A stretch of DNA of 64,000 bases from Escherichia phage vB_EcoM_SA20RB. Location of the stretch: sequence record OL960581; one strand, written 5' to 3'. The notes under the pieces are model-generated. The model had not been told where the DNA came from, did not search any database, and worked only from the letters and a program-made list of their open reading frames with translations. The position numbers and the translations under genes are program-made. This document shows, in pieces, positions 1,537 through 20,120 of this stretch; position 1 is the stretch's first letter; every line of letters begins with the position of its first letter.

Positions 1537-1567
1537 AACAAAGGGACCTTTCGGTCCCTTTTTATTT
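1537..1567. terminator. bidirectional terminator hairpin GGGACC-TTTC-GGTCCC between convergent genes 24 and rnlB
   Basis: GC stem flanked by an A-run on one side and a T-run on the other. Confidence 0.7.
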
Positions 1568-2570
1568 AACTTACCAATTCAATCCAAGCCGGGCGAAGTA
1601 CATCTTGTACCATTTTAACTAATTCCTTTTTAATCAAAGAAGGATTATCCGCTTGAGTTAAAGTAATACCTTCACGAGAAGTTTCTTCCAAAATATCTTG
1701 AACAGTTAGTCCCATCACCTTTCCAAAATCCTTCGGACCAATTTCGCCAATTTTAGAAATAACGTTATTTACCCGGTTCAGTGTAACGTAACAAGCTAAA
1801 ATTCCCACCAATTTGTTATCAGCTTCTGACAGTTCAACTTTAGCTTTAATAGGCTTATCAGACTTTTTCTTTTCGCTAAATTTAGAGTTCTTGCATTTAA
1901 TAGCTACACGATTGCCATTAGGCATCCAAGAAGGATAACAAGGTTTCAATACATAACCTTCAGCGGTAAATACTTCGCCTTTTGCTTCGGCATTCCAAAC
2001 GCATTTATTTGCATCAACTAATCCAGCATGGTCTACTGTAAAATTATAATCTTGAACGACAGAATCTAAATCGTTTGGCAATTTAATAAGCTCTTCAAAT
2101 TTACCGCGACCTAAAAGTGGAGCCATTTTAAATTTAAATGTATTACAGAATGATTCCATCATATAATCATCGACATAAGTCACATCACCACTTTCGGTAG
2201 TAACAATAATGTCAAATACATAAAAATCTTTATCGCCATAATCGACATTCTTCTGAATGCCAGGTCCAGCGAATTCGCCAAAGACTTGATAAGATACAAC
2301 CGCTGAAGTTTCCATAATATCTTGTACTGCTTTAATGGAATCAGCATAATTCTTTAGAATAATTTCATACCCAAAGAAATCTTCAGCAGGAAGAATCGGT
2401 CCAGTACGTTTAGCACAAGTTGCTTTATCGCGCTCAATAATCAACGAGAAATTTGTACCATGAATCTTTTCACGAGCTACCCATTCGCCGCCAGTCAATC
2501 CTAGACTGTAAAGTTTTTCAATGAATTTAGAGTTGTAATGATTTTCAAGACTGCTATACTTTTTAAACAT
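1566..2570 (-). CDS. rnlB: RNA ligase 2
   Basis: 334 aa, same length as T4 Rnl2 (gene 24.1); nucleotidyltransferase lysine motif EKIHGTN near the N-terminus. Confidence 0.9.
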
Positions 2571-3148: not shown

Positions 3149-4567
3149 TTATGGATAGGTATAGATGATACCAGTTTCTAAAGCAGTTTTATGAATGATG
3201 TATCCATTACGTGATTCTTGAACATCAACTTCTGGATAGTCTTTCATCATCTTCTGAAGAGTGTAACGATGCAAGTAGTATTTACTATCTGGATCTTCAG
3301 TTTTCCAATCTTTACCTTCTTCAGTCATTTTTTGGATTTCATCCATAACCCACCAACCGCACCAGATATAAGCTGAAGTACGATGTGGAAGAGGATGAAC
3401 ATAAGGTAATTCACCTTCTGGTTCCGGAGCAACTTTATCAGTTACCTGAACTTGACCTTCTGCTGTGATAGTTTTGCTATCATAATCAGTGGCAGTAACA
3501 GTTGCAGTAACTTCAATAGTTTGACTTCCAATAGATGATGTATCAACGGTGTATACATTAGTTGACCCTTCTACAGGAGAAGAATCTTTCTTCCATGAAT
3601 ACGTAATTTGTGCTTCTTCCGGAGCATCCGTAACATTAGCAGTAAATGTAGCCGAAGCATCTTGCTGAACATTAATAGAAGGAGGAGTCAATGTAACCTG
3701 TGGATTCATTGTCTTCTTATTAACTGTCAATGATACTTCATTAGAAGTAACTTCCTTTTCATTATAATTTTCTGCAGTTACTTGGGCTACGCATTTAATT
3801 CTTTTTACTCCACTTGTAGTTGGAGTATAGTTAAATGTAGAGTTAGTTTCTCCACCAACTTGTGAATCATCTACATACCACTGATACGTGGCAGACGCTC
3901 CATCAGGTTGAGAAGCTAAGGCAGCAGTAAATTGAACCGGGGTTCCAATTACTCCAGCAGCAGGACTAGCAGGAGTTACTGCCAAGGTAGTTGTCTGCGT
4001 CTTTTTATTAACAGTCAGTGACACTTCATTAGAAGTAACTTCCTTTGTATCATAATCTGCCGCGGTTACTTGAGCTACACACTTAATTGTTTTAACTCCG
4101 CTTGTGGAAGGAGTGTAATTGAATGTAGCAGAAGTTGCTTCGCCTACAGGAGAACCGTCAACGTACCATTGATACGTAGCAGTTGCGCCAGATGGCTGTG
4201 AAGCTAAGGCAGCAGTAAATTCAACGGCTGTTCCGATTACTCCTTCTGGAGGACTATTAGGAGTTACAGCTAAGGTAGTTGTTTGTGTCTTATTTTGAAC
4301 TGTGATAGTTATAGTAGCTTCTGCTGTTTCAGCATCAGTATCTGGAACTGGGTTTGTTGCAACTACTTTAATAGTTTTTTGACCGGCAGGTCCTTTTAGT
4401 ACATAACTAAAAGTTGCTTCAGTTCCATCTTGTGGAACATCGTCTACAGTCCAAGCATATGTAATAGGTCCATCTCCAGTTTGACCACTGGGTGTAGCAG
4501 TAAACTGCTGAGTCTGATCTATAACTCCAGTAGGTGTTTTAGGAGTTATATCAACTGTAAAAGCCAT
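3149..4567 (-). CDS. hoc: highly immunogenic outer capsid protein Hoc, with four Ig-like domains
   Basis: 472 aa; recognisable Hoc C-terminal capsid-binding region; two near-identical tandem 96-aa Ig-like modules; T4 Hoc as recalled is 376 aa. Confidence 0.9.
   Translation of the reverse strand: MAFTVDITPKTPTGVIDQTQQFTATPSGQTGDGPITYAWTVDDVPQDGTEATFSYVLKGPAGQKTIKVVATNPVPDTDAETAEATITITVQNKTQTTTLAVTPNSPPEGVIGTAVEFTAALASQPSGATATYQWYVDGSPVGEATSATFNYTPSTSGVKTIKCVAQVTAADYDTKEVTSNEVSLTVNKKTQTTTLAVTPASPAAGVIGTPVQFTAALASQPDGASATYQWYVDDSQVGGETNSTFNYTPTTSGVKRIKCVAQVTAENYNEKEVTSNEVSLTVNKKTMNPQVTLTPPSINVQQDASATFTANVTDAPEEAQITYSWKKDSSPVEGSTNVYTVDTSSIGSQTIEVTATVTATDYDSKTITAEGQVQVTDKVAPEPEGELPYVHPLPHRTSAYIWCGWWVMDEIQKMTEEGKDWKTEDPDSKYYLHRYTLQKMMKDYPEVDVQESRNGYIIHKTALETGIIYTYP
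3719..4294 (-). repeat. tandem duplication of a 288-bp Ig-like domain coding unit inside hoc
   Basis: Protein segments KKTQTTTLAVTPNSP...SNEVSLTVN and KKTQTTTLAVTPASP...SNEVSLTVN are about 85 percent identical; the DNA copies are visibly similar. Confidence 0.85.
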
Positions 4568-4576
4568 AAGTTATCC

Positions 4577-5257
4577 TTATTTTAATGTTACGAAAGAAGA
4601 ATTGCGTGTTTCACGAATTAGAACTGATCCGTCGCGATTAATGTAATAAATTAAGCTAAATAAAGTTTGGTGTGCCAACGCATGTTCAAAACTAGTTGGG
4701 TGAGATTTCCAATCCGGAGTTTCAGCAATCCACTGGTAAATCCACCAAGGAACAGTGCAGAATCCTGGATTTTTTCCAATTAGCTGAAGATTCGGACTAA
4801 AGTTTTCCGGAAGAGTAAATACAGACGGCTTTTCAGATTCAATAATCTCAGCTACAGCCTGTTCGAATTTTTCTTCAACAAAAGGAGTATCTTCAATCAA
4901 AACATCGGTATTTTCAGGAATTTTATCCGTTTCTACTACTTCAATTTTAATGTCAGATTTAACCGGAGAATCAATCAGAAGTGCTGCTTCTGGATTGACT
5001 TCTTCATCGTCATATTTTAACCCCTCTGCAGCATCAGCAGCATTGATTAAGTCTTTAATAGATAACCCATCAGTCTCTGGCATAGGTTCACTAGCGAGCT
5101 TCTGGAGGGCTTCTTCAATATCAACAACGATATTATCAAAAGATTTATTCTTTTTGACCTTTATACCAAACTGTTCAGCATATTCAGCTAATTTAGCCTT
5201 AGCTTCTTTATTATCATCAAGAGCCTTCAGCTCTGCAATATAATCTTTATCTATCAT
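4577..5257 (-). CDS. inh: inhibitor of prohead protease Inh
   Basis: 226 aa, acidic; position between hoc and uvsW as in T4; SD GAGGAAA upstream. Confidence 0.8.
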   Translation of the reverse strand: MIDKDYIAELKALDDNKEAKAKLAEYAEQFGIKVKKNKSFDNIVVDIEEALQKLASEPMPETDGLSIKDLINAADAAEGLKYDDEEVNPEAALLIDSPVKSDIKIEVVETDKIPENTDVLIEDTPFVEEKFEQAVAEIIESEKPSVFTLPENFSPNLQLIGKNPGFCTVPWWIYQWIAETPDWKSHPTSFEHALAHQTLFSLIYYINRDGSVLIRETRNSSFVTLK

Positions 5258-5270
5258 AATATTTCCTCAG

Positions 5271-5278
5271 TATAAATA
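5271..5278 (+). promoter_or_regulatory. late promoter TATAAATA for uvsW
   Basis: Exact TATAAATA about 30 nt upstream of the uvsW ATG. Confidence 0.6.
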
Positions 5279-5307
5279 TAGATATATTTATTACATGGTA
5301 TTTAGAC

Positions 5308-6819
5308 ATGACTGACATTAAAGTACATTTTTATGATTTTAGTCACGTGAGAATTGATTGTGAAGAAAGTACATTTCATGAACTCCGTGATTTCTTTAGC
5401 TTTGAAGCTGATGGGTATCGTTTTAATCCGAAGTACAAATATGGCCACTGGGATGGACGAATCCGTCTTTTAGATTATAATCGTCTTCTTCCATTCGGCT
5501 TAGTCGGACAAATTAAAAAGTTCTGCGATAACTTTGGCTATAAAGCTTGGATTGACCCACAGATTAACGAAAAAGAAGAATTATCAAGAAAAGATTTTGA
5601 TGAATGGCTTTCTAAGTTAGAAATCTATTCAGGAAATAAAAGAATTGAACCACACTGGTATCAAAAAGATGCAGTGTTCGAAGGATTAGTTAATCGTCGT
5701 AGAATTCTTAATCTTCCAACATCCGCAGGTAAATCTTTAATTCAAGCTTTGCTTGCACGTTATTATTTGGAAAATTATGAAGGTAAAATTCTTATCATTG
5801 TTCCAACAACTGCTCTGACAACTCAGATGGCTGATGACTTTGTTGACTATCGTTTATTCAGTCATGCAATGATAAAGAAAATCGGCGGTGGAGCATCAAA
5901 AGATGATAAATATAAAAATGATGCACCGGTAATTGTTGGTACATGGCAAACTGTAGTAAAACAACCAAAAGAATGGTTCTCACAGTTTGGAATGATGATG
6001 AATGATGAATGCCATCTTGCCACAGGAAAAAGTATTTCATCTATCATATCAGGTTTAAATAACTGCATGTTCAAATTCGGTTTGTCTGGTTCATTACGTG
6101 ATGGCAAAGCCAATATCATGCAGTATGTTGGAATGTTTGGTGAAATATTTAAGCCAGTAACGACTTCTAAATTAATGGAAGATGGACAAGTAACTGAGCT
6201 AAAAATTAATAGTATTTTTCTTCGTTATCCTGATGAGTTCACTACTAAATTAAAGGGAAAAACTTACCAAGAAGAAATAAAAATTATTACTGGGCTCAGT
6301 AAAAGAAATAAATGGATCGCTAAATTAGCTATTAAACTTGCGCAAAAAGATGAAAACGCTTTTGTCATGTTTAAGCATGTATCACATGGTAAAGCTATTT
6401 TCGATTTAATTAAAAATGAATACGATAAAGTTTATTACGTATCAGGGGAAGTTGATACCGAAACACGCAACGTAATGAAAACCCTAGCTGAAAACGGTAA
6501 AGGAATAATTATAGTAGCTAGTTATGGTGTATTTTCTACTGGTATTTCAGTTAAAAATCTGCATCACGTTGTTTTAGCACACGGTGTTAAATCTAAAATT
6601 ATTGTATTGCAAACAATAGGTCGCGTATTACGTAAGCATGGTTCTAAAACAATCGCAACGGTCTGGGACCTCATAGATGATTGCGGTGTTAAGCCAAAAT
6701 CTGCTAATACGAAAAAGAAATATGTTCATTTGAACTATCTTTTAAAACACGGCATTGATCGTATTCAGCGATACGCAGATGAAAAATTTAATTACGTAAT
6801 GAAAACAGTTAATTTATAA
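5308..6819 (+). CDS. uvsW: UvsW DNA/RNA helicase (SF2)
   Basis: 503 aa; Walker A PTSAGKS and DECH box; sequence recognised. Confidence 0.95.
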   Translation: MTDIKVHFYDFSHVRIDCEESTFHELRDFFSFEADGYRFNPKYKYGHWDGRIRLLDYNRLLPFGLVGQIKKFCDNFGYKAWIDPQINEKEELSRKDFDEWLSKLEIYSGNKRIEPHWYQKDAVFEGLVNRRRILNLPTSAGKSLIQALLARYYLENYEGKILIIVPTTALTTQMADDFVDYRLFSHAMIKKIGGGASKDDKYKNDAPVIVGTWQTVVKQPKEWFSQFGMMMNDECHLATGKSISSIISGLNNCMFKFGLSGSLRDGKANIMQYVGMFGEIFKPVTTSKLMEDGQVTELKINSIFLRYPDEFTTKLKGKTYQEEIKIITGLSKRNKWIAKLAIKLAQKDENAFVMFKHVSHGKAIFDLIKNEYDKVYYVSGEVDTETRNVMKTLAENGKGIIIVASYGVFSTGISVKNLHHVVLAHGVKSKIIVLQTIGRVLRKHGSKTIATVWDLIDDCGVKPKSANTKKKYVHLNYLLKHGIDRIQRYADEKFNYVMKTVNL

Positions 6820-17785: not shown

Positions 17786-19882
17786 TTATCCTTGAACGAA
17801 CTTGTAAGGCATGTTTGCAATATCTATGCAAGATGCAATAATTCCAAGAGATGATTCTACTTTTTGTTTAACATTTGATGAAACAAATGATGCAAAGTCA
17901 ACTCTGTCTTCTATTTCAATATCACCTGTCATTGCAACTACTTCACCAGTTTCCATTAGACGGTCACCGTCATAAATTACTGATTCGGTGAGTTCTTCCG
18001 TAGTCATAACTTCAGCTTGAATGAGTTTTGTATTATTAGATGTTGTTCCGTCATTATTAGAAGCATCAGTTATTTTATTAACTTTGACCATCAATCCGCG
18101 TGGTAGAATTACTTCAGCTTCTGTTGCTATTCCTAGACTTCCTGGATATACAACATTAACTTTATGAGCTCCATCAATTGCCCATCCTATTTGAACTTTA
18201 ACGTATTCAGGATTTTCTTTATACGCTCTTATTTCGTTTGGATTAATAGTTATTCCTTCTTCATTTTTATCAACTGTCAATTCATTACGAGCTTCTGGTT
18301 CTAAAAGACCAATACCAGCATGTGTAATTCCAAAACGTCCAAAAATGATAGGAGTTAAAGAAGTAGATACAAAATTTCTGAAATAGAACACTTTATTTTT
18401 AACTAGTGCTTCGTATATAGGAGCAGTCATGCTTTGAGCACGATAAACTGTAATGCCTTCTGGTATACGATCACCATTTTCAAAAGCTGAATCTAAGTTA
18501 TTTATAGCAGATTCAATTTCTTTTTCACTCATTACATCATATCGTTCTGGATTGTAACGACCCAAAAGAAGATTATTGATGTCAGTATATCCTGAACCAC
18601 AATACTCTCTAATGCCGCGCTTTTGTGATGGAGTATATTTAGAACCATCACGGGCAATAGTAATATCAATCATTGGACCTGCACCAATTCCAGAAAAGCT
18701 ATAAATCATTCTTTTAAGGAATTTAGTTTTTGCTGCGTTCCAGGAATTTTTAGTTATTTCTTCCCAGACTTCATCTGGCTGCCCTTTACGAGTTTTATTA
18801 TGTTTATCAAGCCAATTATCTTTATATTCTTCAAAGAATTGATTAACAGCTGCTGCGTATTTCTCTAAACATTTTATTGAAGTAGTTGGTTCATTTTTAA
18901 TCGCATTAAGAATTACATCTTTAATTTTTTCAGAAACTTCATTAACCTCACTTTTTGAAAAGAATTTATAATCATAGTGAAGTTCATTTGCAGTTCCTTC
19001 AGCAATAATTTTTGCTGTCTTTGTTTTAGAAGCTAATGAATTAATTCCAAGCTTCATTTCTTCTGCTTCGGGAATTAAAGGAGCGGTAGCAGGTTTATTG
19101 AAATTAGCTGCGGTAGATTCATACTTCTGGAATAATTCACTTTCAAATCTAGAAGATTCTAATGATTGACTTTGCGCAATTGCTCTACGGGAAATTTTAA
19201 CTTTAACGATTACAGCTTGGTCAGAACGTTTATCATTTTCTTGCGCAATAGATGCAGCAATTGCCTCATTTTTAGTTACTTGAGCTCCAGTATCTTTATT
19301 GATATAAACATCACCAACCTTCGATTCAACTTTAGTAAAGAGCTCGGTACTAATTTCCGGAACTCCTGGAATGTCTTCTAGTGATACATTTTTGCGATGT
19401 ATAAGAATATATGCATACTTTTTATCGTAATCCCAAAGTTCCTTAAGAAGGACGTATCTGCCGCCTGAGCGACTACGGATAAGTCTATCAGCAATAAGTT
19501 GAATTTGACGAGCTTGACCAGCAGTTTTAGACTTAAGAATACGGAGCATGCAGGCATCAATTTTATACTGACGCATCGTCTGCATCGCAACAGTAAAAAC
19601 TGAATTGATGTAATTAATTGGGCTTGGACCGAGACCTTTTAATTTAGCAATTGAACCTTTAGCAGTTAATGTAAAAGGAACAATATGCATCATTTTATCG
19701 CCCATTTTTAAATCGCGATTAGTATCACCTCCAGATGTATAGGTACATAAACGAAAGCCTGGTTGTTCAATTGCGTCATCAACATGAACTGAAAAAATTT
19801 GCGGTATTTTCTTCTTTGGATTTAAGTTTGTAATCGGAAGAGTAGTATCTTCGTCAAATAATTCTGTAATGAGTTCCATCAT
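17786..19882 (-). CDS. alt: Alt ADP-ribosyltransferase (packaged head protein)
   Basis: 698-aa ORF (697 if the second Met is used); adjacent to gene 30 as in T4; late promoter upstream. Confidence 0.85.
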   Translation of the reverse strand: MMELITELFDEDTTLPITNLNPKKKIPQIFSVHVDDAIEQPGFRLCTYTSGGDTNRDLKMGDKMMHIVPFTLTAKGSIAKLKGLGPSPINYINSVFTVAMQTMRQYKIDACMLRILKSKTAGQARQIQLIADRLIRSRSGGRYVLLKELWDYDKKYAYILIHRKNVSLEDIPGVPEISTELFTKVESKVGDVYINKDTGAQVTKNEAIAASIAQENDKRSDQAVIVKVKISRRAIAQSQSLESSRFESELFQKYESTAANFNKPATAPLIPEAEEMKLGINSLASKTKTAKIIAEGTANELHYDYKFFSKSEVNEVSEKIKDVILNAIKNEPTTSIKCLEKYAAAVNQFFEEYKDNWLDKHNKTRKGQPDEVWEEITKNSWNAAKTKFLKRMIYSFSGIGAGPMIDITIARDGSKYTPSQKRGIREYCGSGYTDINNLLLGRYNPERYDVMSEKEIESAINNLDSAFENGDRIPEGITVYRAQSMTAPIYEALVKNKVFYFRNFVSTSLTPIIFGRFGITHAGIGLLEPEARNELTVDKNEEGITINPNEIRAYKENPEYVKVQIGWAIDGAHKVNVVYPGSLGIATEAEVILPRGLMVKVNKITDASNNDGTTSNNTKLIQAEVMTTEELTESVIYDGDRLMETGEVVAMTGDIEIEDRVDFASFVSSNVKQKVESSLGIIASCIDIANMPYKFVQG

Positions 19883-19902
19883 ATCCTCTCTAGTGTTTAT
19901 TC

Positions 19903-19910
19903 TATTTATA
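19903..19910 (-). promoter_or_regulatory. late promoter TATAAATA for alt
   Basis: Exact TATAAATA on the minus strand about 20 nt upstream of the alt ATG. Confidence 0.6.
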
Positions 19911-19931
19911 AAATTAAAGGCCCGAAGGCCT

Positions 19932-20120
19932 TTAATAATCTATTGGTAAGAGAGTACGATATATTTCAAACTTTGGACCTTTTTCGTAGGCATCAAATGT
20001 TTCTGTAAATTTATTATAAGCATATGCATCTATAAATTCAATCATAATTTGTGATACAGAAGTAGAAACATCTCCACCTTCTTTTTGAGCAACGACAATT
20101 GTTTCTAAGTAAGCTTTCAT
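19932..20120 (-). CDS. hypothetical protein
   Basis: 62-aa ORF whose start overlaps the gene 30 stop. Confidence 0.5.
   Translation of the reverse strand: MKAYLETIVVAQKEGGDVSTSVSQIMIEFIDAYAYNKFTETFDAYEKGPKFEIYRTLLPIDY

Follow-up and report, generated by a model that had tools for sequence, protein, structure and literature searches.

The hoc locus

The 64,000 nt stretch of Escherichia phage vB_EcoM_SA20RB that was analysed (sequence record OL960581; hereafter the window) is DNA of a Tequatrovirus (T4-like) phage, and the gene described here is hoc. The features of the locus are collected in Table 1. T4 Hoc (376 aa, PDB 5vf3_Z) matched the window protein by phmmer with an E value of 2e-216, which upholds the gene assignment given in the preliminary description, and phage records that are 94–97% identical to the window gene annotate it as 'Hoc-like head decoration'. 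The upstream neighbour, inh, is annotated next to hoc in T4-like records too, and small ORFs as well as an RNA-ligase-like gene lie downstream. Compared with the annotated loci of T4, RB32 and other phages, the genome position uvsW / inh / hoc / 24.3 / 24.2 / rnlB is kept in the window.

A segE-type homing endonuclease gene adjoins inh in T4, Pu-Krd-SF7 and P922 (within positions 1–480 of the fetched loci). In the window (5258–5307) and at most of the other loci, uvsW directly adjoins inh and the segE-type gene is missing; this mobile endonuclease gene beside hoc is polymorphic for presence or absence.

A consensus scan detected a terminator-like structure just past the hoc stop codon, and phage G50 has an annotated terminator at the corresponding position. 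Upstream of hoc and of inh, the minus strand has no exact match to the T4 late promoter (TATAAATA); the sole exact match nearby is on the plus strand (5271–5278), beside uvsW. Transcription of hoc presumably proceeds as in T4.

Table 1. Features of the hoc locus and domains of the encoded protein (window coordinates).
Feature	Position	Strand	Basis or remarks
uvsW-like helicase gene, beyond inh	5308–6819	plus	ORF
inh (inhibitor of prohead protease), 226 aa, 9 nt from hoc	4577–5257	minus	ORF
hoc, highly immunogenic outer capsid (head decoration) protein, 472 aa	3149–4567	minus	ORF and phmmer
Ig-like domain 1 (D1), aa 1–92	4292–4567	minus	Aligns to T4 Hoc 1–92; beta-sandwich model, pLDDT ~87–93
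Domain 2 (D2) module A, aa 93–188, copy absent from T4	4004–4291	minus	Repeat tools; module identities
D2 module B, aa 189–284, counterpart of T4 domain 2	3716–4003	minus	91% nt identity to T4 D2
Ig-like domain 3 (D3), aa 285–380	3428–3715	minus	Aligns to T4 Hoc 189–284; model pLDDT ~90
C-terminal capsid-binding domain, aa 381–472, and stop codon	3149–3427	minus	Near-identical to T4 Hoc 285–376
Terminator-like GC hairpin followed by T-run, 5 nt past hoc stop codon	3129–3144	minus	Consensus scan
RNA-ligase-like gene, downstream of hoc	1566–2570		ORF

Domain architecture of the window Hoc

The phmmer alignment with T4 Hoc falls into two pieces, in which residues 1–103 of the window protein correspond to T4 residues 1–103 and residues 189–472 to T4 residues 93–376. 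Exactly one unit of 96 aa is therefore extra in the window protein, and this accounts for the lengths of 472 and 376 aa that had been contrasted in the preliminary description. The same description had proposed four Ig-like domains plus a capsid-binding domain, and the Pfam matches, the structural model, the Foldseek search and the T4 alignment all agree with that arrangement.

Among Pfam families, PKD, PKD_3, PKD_4 and BiPBP_C scored above their cut-offs in the window Hoc, and Ig families were near theirs. The PKD match covers residues 197–267 (module B), while Ig_3 and I-set match residues 289–373 (domain 3). An HMM of the two D2 modules weakly detects D1 (29.6 bits) and D3. The AlphaFold2 model, based on 34 homologues, has a mean pLDDT of 84.7 and folds residues 1–376 into four beta-sandwich domains (pLDDT ~90), with low confidence in the C-terminal domain. 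That domain is almost invariant among the 34 homologues, and residues 381–472 align end to end, with few substitutions, with 285–376 of T4 Hoc, whose capsid-binding domain lies at about 281–376. When the model was compared with the PDB by Foldseek, the best matches were four-Ig-domain fragments, e.g., Dscam1 Ig1–4 and ICAM-5 D1–D4 (E ~1e-13).

The T4 protein (376 aa; PDB 5vf3, 8t1x and others; model in Fokine et al. 2023, PMC10385173) is the nearest well-described counterpart. Its gene, like that of the window, lies between inh and 24.3/rnlB, but the protein has three Ig-like domains where the window Hoc has four, with module A placed between D1 and the T4-like D2. A much smaller repeat was also noted within domain 3: a 12 nt mini-tandem (CAGTGGCAGTAA; 2.1 copies, 3487–3511) encodes the stretch VTATVTAT, and a related 22 nt motif recurs in module A (4048–4069).

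Comparison of modules A and B

The two D2 modules form a tandem repeat that was recovered by two repeat-finding tools. Tandem Repeats Finder reported one array at 3711–4291 (period 288, 2.0 copies, 78% matches, 0% indels, score 726), and a second search paired 3711–3998 with 3999–4286 at 78% identity. A match this strong over 288 nt, in frame and without gaps, is far beyond what chance would give. The preliminary description had placed the repeat at 3719–4294, a few bases off the measured module limits, and had correctly seen two consecutive 96 aa modules that are alike at the DNA level (78.1% identity). Its value of about 85% for protein identity is slightly high: the modules are similar, and 77 of their 96 residues (80.2%) are identical.

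Modules A and B differ at 63 of 288 nt positions, giving 34 synonymous and 19 non-synonymous codon differences. Their longest in-register exact match is 24 nt, so homologous exchange between the two should be infrequent. Fifteen of the 19 amino acid differences fall outside the predicted strands (Fisher p = 0.0015), i.e., the modules have a conserved scaffold and differing loops. By the Nei–Gojobori method, dN between A and B is 0.12 and dS ~0.96 (pS 0.54). The resulting dN/dS of ~0.13 indicates that both modules are under purifying selection, and the Hoc encoded in the window is intact, its additional Ig-like module being maintained by selection.

Copy number of D2 modules among T4-like phages

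A blastn search of phage records with module A alone returned 890 copies in 616 records. In a sample of 60 records spread evenly through the 616, copy number was one in 36, two in 22, three in a single record (ECML-123-2) and four in another (slur14), and the blastn count agreed with the sequence at all 11 loci that were fetched. Roughly 40% of sequenced hoc-bearing T4-like phages thus carry at least one 'extra' module, and the extra domain is not a novelty of this phage. Within Tequatrovirus, the range is one to four modules, corresponding to proteins of 376, 472, 568 and 664 aa.

Among the best 120 representatives from a search of 5.8 billion proteins, 80 were of 376 aa, 29 of 472 aa and 8 of 568–570 aa. 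Dozens of 472 aa clusters are public, some of them comprising 58–167 member sequences. Many named phages have a hoc gene of 1419 nt that matches the whole window gene, near full length, at 94–97% identity; the best match in the phage collection reaches 97.1%, and none is identical to the window hoc. The 472 aa proteins of Pu-Krd-SF5, Pu-Krd-SF6, Pu-Krd-SF7, KFS-EC3, IME340, PP01 and SHFML-11 have the same A-B arrangement as the window, with 94–97% DNA identity over the gene, and the 472 aa Tequatrovirus Hoc proteins differ from that of the window by point differences only. Longer versions are found in slur14 (664 aa, four D2 modules) and in UGKSEcP1 and ECML-123-2 (568 aa, three modules); these share the conserved C-terminal anchor with the window protein but have other numbers and types of module.

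Several individual loci deserve mention. The slur14 protein (CUL03335.1; fetched locus L001, 1215–3209) is the longest Tequatrovirus Hoc seen and has six Ig-like domains in total. In ECML-123-2 (OL631480.1; L002, 1220–2926), the intact three-module hoc ORF was left unannotated in the deposited record. The 32 kb record MG010123.1, named 'Staphylococcus phage SAJK-IND', contains a two-module T4-like hoc at 18685–20103 that is 94% identical to that of the window, and is probably a mislabelled or contaminated record. In T2 (PV648363.1; L007, 1358–2347), the hoc region consists of three short CDSs, each annotated 'Hoc-like head decoration protein', and looks like a pseudogene.

Module types and their order

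The relationships between modules were examined using a DNA identity matrix and a neighbour-joining tree of 23 D2 modules from 12 phages. In both, modules group by type (A, B or C) and not by phage. Type A is first in every array that has one, and the single copies of RB32, P922 and ST0 are also A-like. Types B and B' include the second copies of the window, Pu-Krd-SF7, O157 typing phage 7, phiD1, ECML-123-2 and Pu-Krd-SF4, and, at other positions, the single copy of T4 and copy 3 of slur14. A further type, B'', is represented by copy 2 of slur14 and copy 1 of Pu-Krd-SF4. Type C comprises copy 2 of pSs-1, copy 3 of ECML-123-2 and copy 4 of slur14.

At the DNA level, the arrays can be written as A-B (the window, Pu-Krd-SF7 and O157 typing phage 7), A-B' (phiD1), A-C (pSs-1), A-B'-C (ECML-123-2) and A-B''-B'-C (slur14), with B''-B' in Pu-Krd-SF4, which has no A, and B' alone in T4. 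A rough nearest-reference typing of 121 representative proteins indicated that 39 of 40 multi-copy arrays begin with a module of type A. For single-copy modules, protein-level clustering and nearest-reference assignment disagree because these modules are mosaics, and informative sites at the DNA level were therefore used instead.

Chimeric single-copy alleles and probable contraction of the array

The genomes nearest to the window across its first 25 kb are those of IME339 (98.0%) and G50 (97.9%), and both have a single-copy hoc. At the 63 sites that distinguish A from B, the single module of G50 has 51 A-states in a row and then 8 B-states in a row. The single modules of P922, RB32 and IME339 also change once, at a significant breakpoint, from A-like sequence on the left to B-like sequence on the right (max-chi-square permutation tests, p = 0.0002–0.0014). 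A-type 3' ends were seen only in the first-position modules of arrays. A hybrid with an A-type 5' part and a B-type 3' part is the expected product of an unequal crossover that removes one unit from an A-B array, and the chimeric alleles therefore support recurrent contraction of the hoc array with differing breakpoints. At the G50 breakpoint, A and B of the window have 5 nt of identity, so the array from which the G50 module derived probably differed from that of the window.

The single module of T4 is B'-type almost throughout, with an A-like 3' patch that is common to all B' modules, and from its sequence the one-module form of T4 may be either ancestral or a deletion derivative.

Evidence of recent expansion was sought by comparing internal copies, and among 40 multi-copy Hoc representatives there was none with internal copies of more than 85% protein identity. 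The preliminary description had regarded the repeat as a hotspot for both expansion and contraction; contraction is supported by the chimeric alleles of the nearest relatives, and expansion found no support in this set (0 of 40). A smaller event was noted in the G50 Hoc (QBO65049.1; L014, 1169–2329), a protein of 386 aa with a 10 aa in-frame tandem insertion (DNEKEVTSNE) close to where its D2 module ends, which is a second, smaller repeat event at the same place.

Age and origin of the two-module array

The window hoc very probably carries an A-B array of old paralogous 96 aa 'domain 2' modules that was not made recently in this lineage. The array would have been inherited, or gained by homologous recombination with another T4-like phage. 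Within Tequatrovirus, the one to four modules of an array would keep the same order of types, with A leading, B-types next and C last, and copy number would change mainly by unequal homologous recombination between modules, leaving chimeric modules behind.

If, in a mixed infection, divergent single-copy hoc alleles, one A-type and one B-type, had undergone out-of-register recombination, then a two-module gene would also have arisen, and the single-copy genes would be the parents and the arrays the products. T4-like phages recombine very actively, and single-copy genes that are mostly A-like (RB32, P922) or mostly B-like (T4) both exist. However, the A-like single copies (G50, P922, RB32 and IME339) end in B-type sequence, as expected of deletion products, and A-type 3' ends were seen only in the leading modules of arrays. 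Such a fusion would also need a crossover between D2 and either D1 or D3, which share little DNA similarity, and the A-B-C order of three- and four-module arrays is more easily explained by loss from an ordered array. An origin by fusion of single-copy alleles is, on this evidence, unlikely.

The preliminary description had considered the extra domain to be recently duplicated, i.e., that domain 2 was copied in place in this phage lineage and the copies have barely diverged. A repeat whose units adjoin perfectly and in frame, with no indels, together with the single copy in T4, could be read in this way, but the divergence of the modules makes a recent duplication very improbable. Against the A/B dS of ~0.96, with its 34 synonymous and 19 non-synonymous codon differences, the D1, D3 and C-terminal domains of the window differ from those of 11 other T4-like phages by a dS of only 0.06–0.36. 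Each module is also closer to modules of the same type in other phages than to its own neighbour, the very outcome that the preliminary description had named as counting against its reading. Module A is 96% identical in nucleotide sequence to copy 1 of Pu-Krd-SF7 and 78% to T4 D2, and module B is 98% identical to copy 2 of Pu-Krd-SF7; overall, same-type modules of other phages are 83–96% identical to A and 88–98% identical to B, compared to 78% between A and B. Many independently isolated phages have the same A-B arrangement, and internal copies are at most 85% identical in protein sequence in every multi-copy Hoc compared. By these sequence comparisons, A and B are old paralogues. The high dS between them could partly stem from import of a module from a more divergent lineage, in which case the copies would still not be recent.

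Tandem repeats are a classic cause of collapsed or expanded assemblies, but the chance that the two-copy state of the window, or the chimeric single-copy state of its relatives, is an artefact of mis-assembly is negligible, since 63 of the 288 positions distinguish A from B and no in-register exact match exceeds 24 nt (making collapse or expansion unlikely), the two-copy form is present in hundreds of independent records, and the one-copy form of T4 is experimentally established, structures of the 376 aa chain having been solved.

Functional context and significance

Hoc attaches as a monomer to the middle of each gp23* hexamer; its C-terminal domain binds the capsid, and the Ig-like domains extend from there as a roughly linear fibre (PMC10385173). 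Hoc homologues keep the C-terminal anchor and have from 1 to 10 Ig-like domains, the four-domain fibre of T4 being ~180 Å long (PMC10385173). The 10-Ig-domain Hoc of Serratia phage Muldoon (PMC10385173) follows the same design principle as the window protein and is more distant from it in sequence. The Hoc of phiPNJ-9, which is without domain 3 (PMC11853027), similarly combines a conserved anchor with variable Ig beads, and is again more distant in sequence. The position of the monomer at the hexamer centre, its dispensability for growth and its binding to mucin glycans or bacterial surfaces have been established only in T4 and a few related phages (PMC10385173, PMC11150434, PMC11853027).

Scaled from the 180 Å of the four-domain T4 fibre (PMC10385173), the additional module would lengthen the fibre of the window Hoc by about one Ig domain, roughly 40–45 Å, and would carry D1 farther out from the shell. 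A second D2 surface, with other loops and an SLT motif, would be gained as well. In phiPNJ-9, domain 2 of Hoc binds MUC2 through S183, L184 and T185 (PMC11853027), and the window Hoc has an SLT motif at residues 183–185 and another at 279–281, one in each D2 module. In the T4-like, four-domain Hoc of phiPNJ-6, MUC2 is bound by domain 1 and not by domain 2 (PMC11150434), so any contribution of D2 would depend on context.

The two-module Hoc is an ordinary, widely sequenced and already known variant. With the 472 aa architecture present in hundreds of phage genomes, and variation in Ig number already published, the finding is of little importance for the window itself. No paper on D2 copy-number variation within Tequatrovirus was found in the literature searched, although absence there is not proof of absence. 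What is mildly new is that the paralogous modules (A, B and C) form an ordered set and that chimeric deletion alleles accompany it; no description of this was found in the same literature.

For the genus, the 376 aa Hoc of T4 is a poor default, both in engineering by Hoc display and in the interpretation of mucus adherence. The A, B and C types and the chimeric deletion alleles provide natural material on whether adhesion depends on fibre length or module type, and hoc length is a cheap typing marker for therapeutic T4-like phages. It is possible, if rather doubtful, that the D2 array of hoc is a standing, selected polymorphism, in which one to four ordered modules, differing mainly in their loops, are shuffled by unequal recombination; the searched literature contained no paper on module shuffling as an axis of adaptation in Tequatrovirus. 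If this were true, module shuffling would adapt the capsid fibre, in its length, valency and glycan specificity, to different surfaces, whether mucosal or bacterial.
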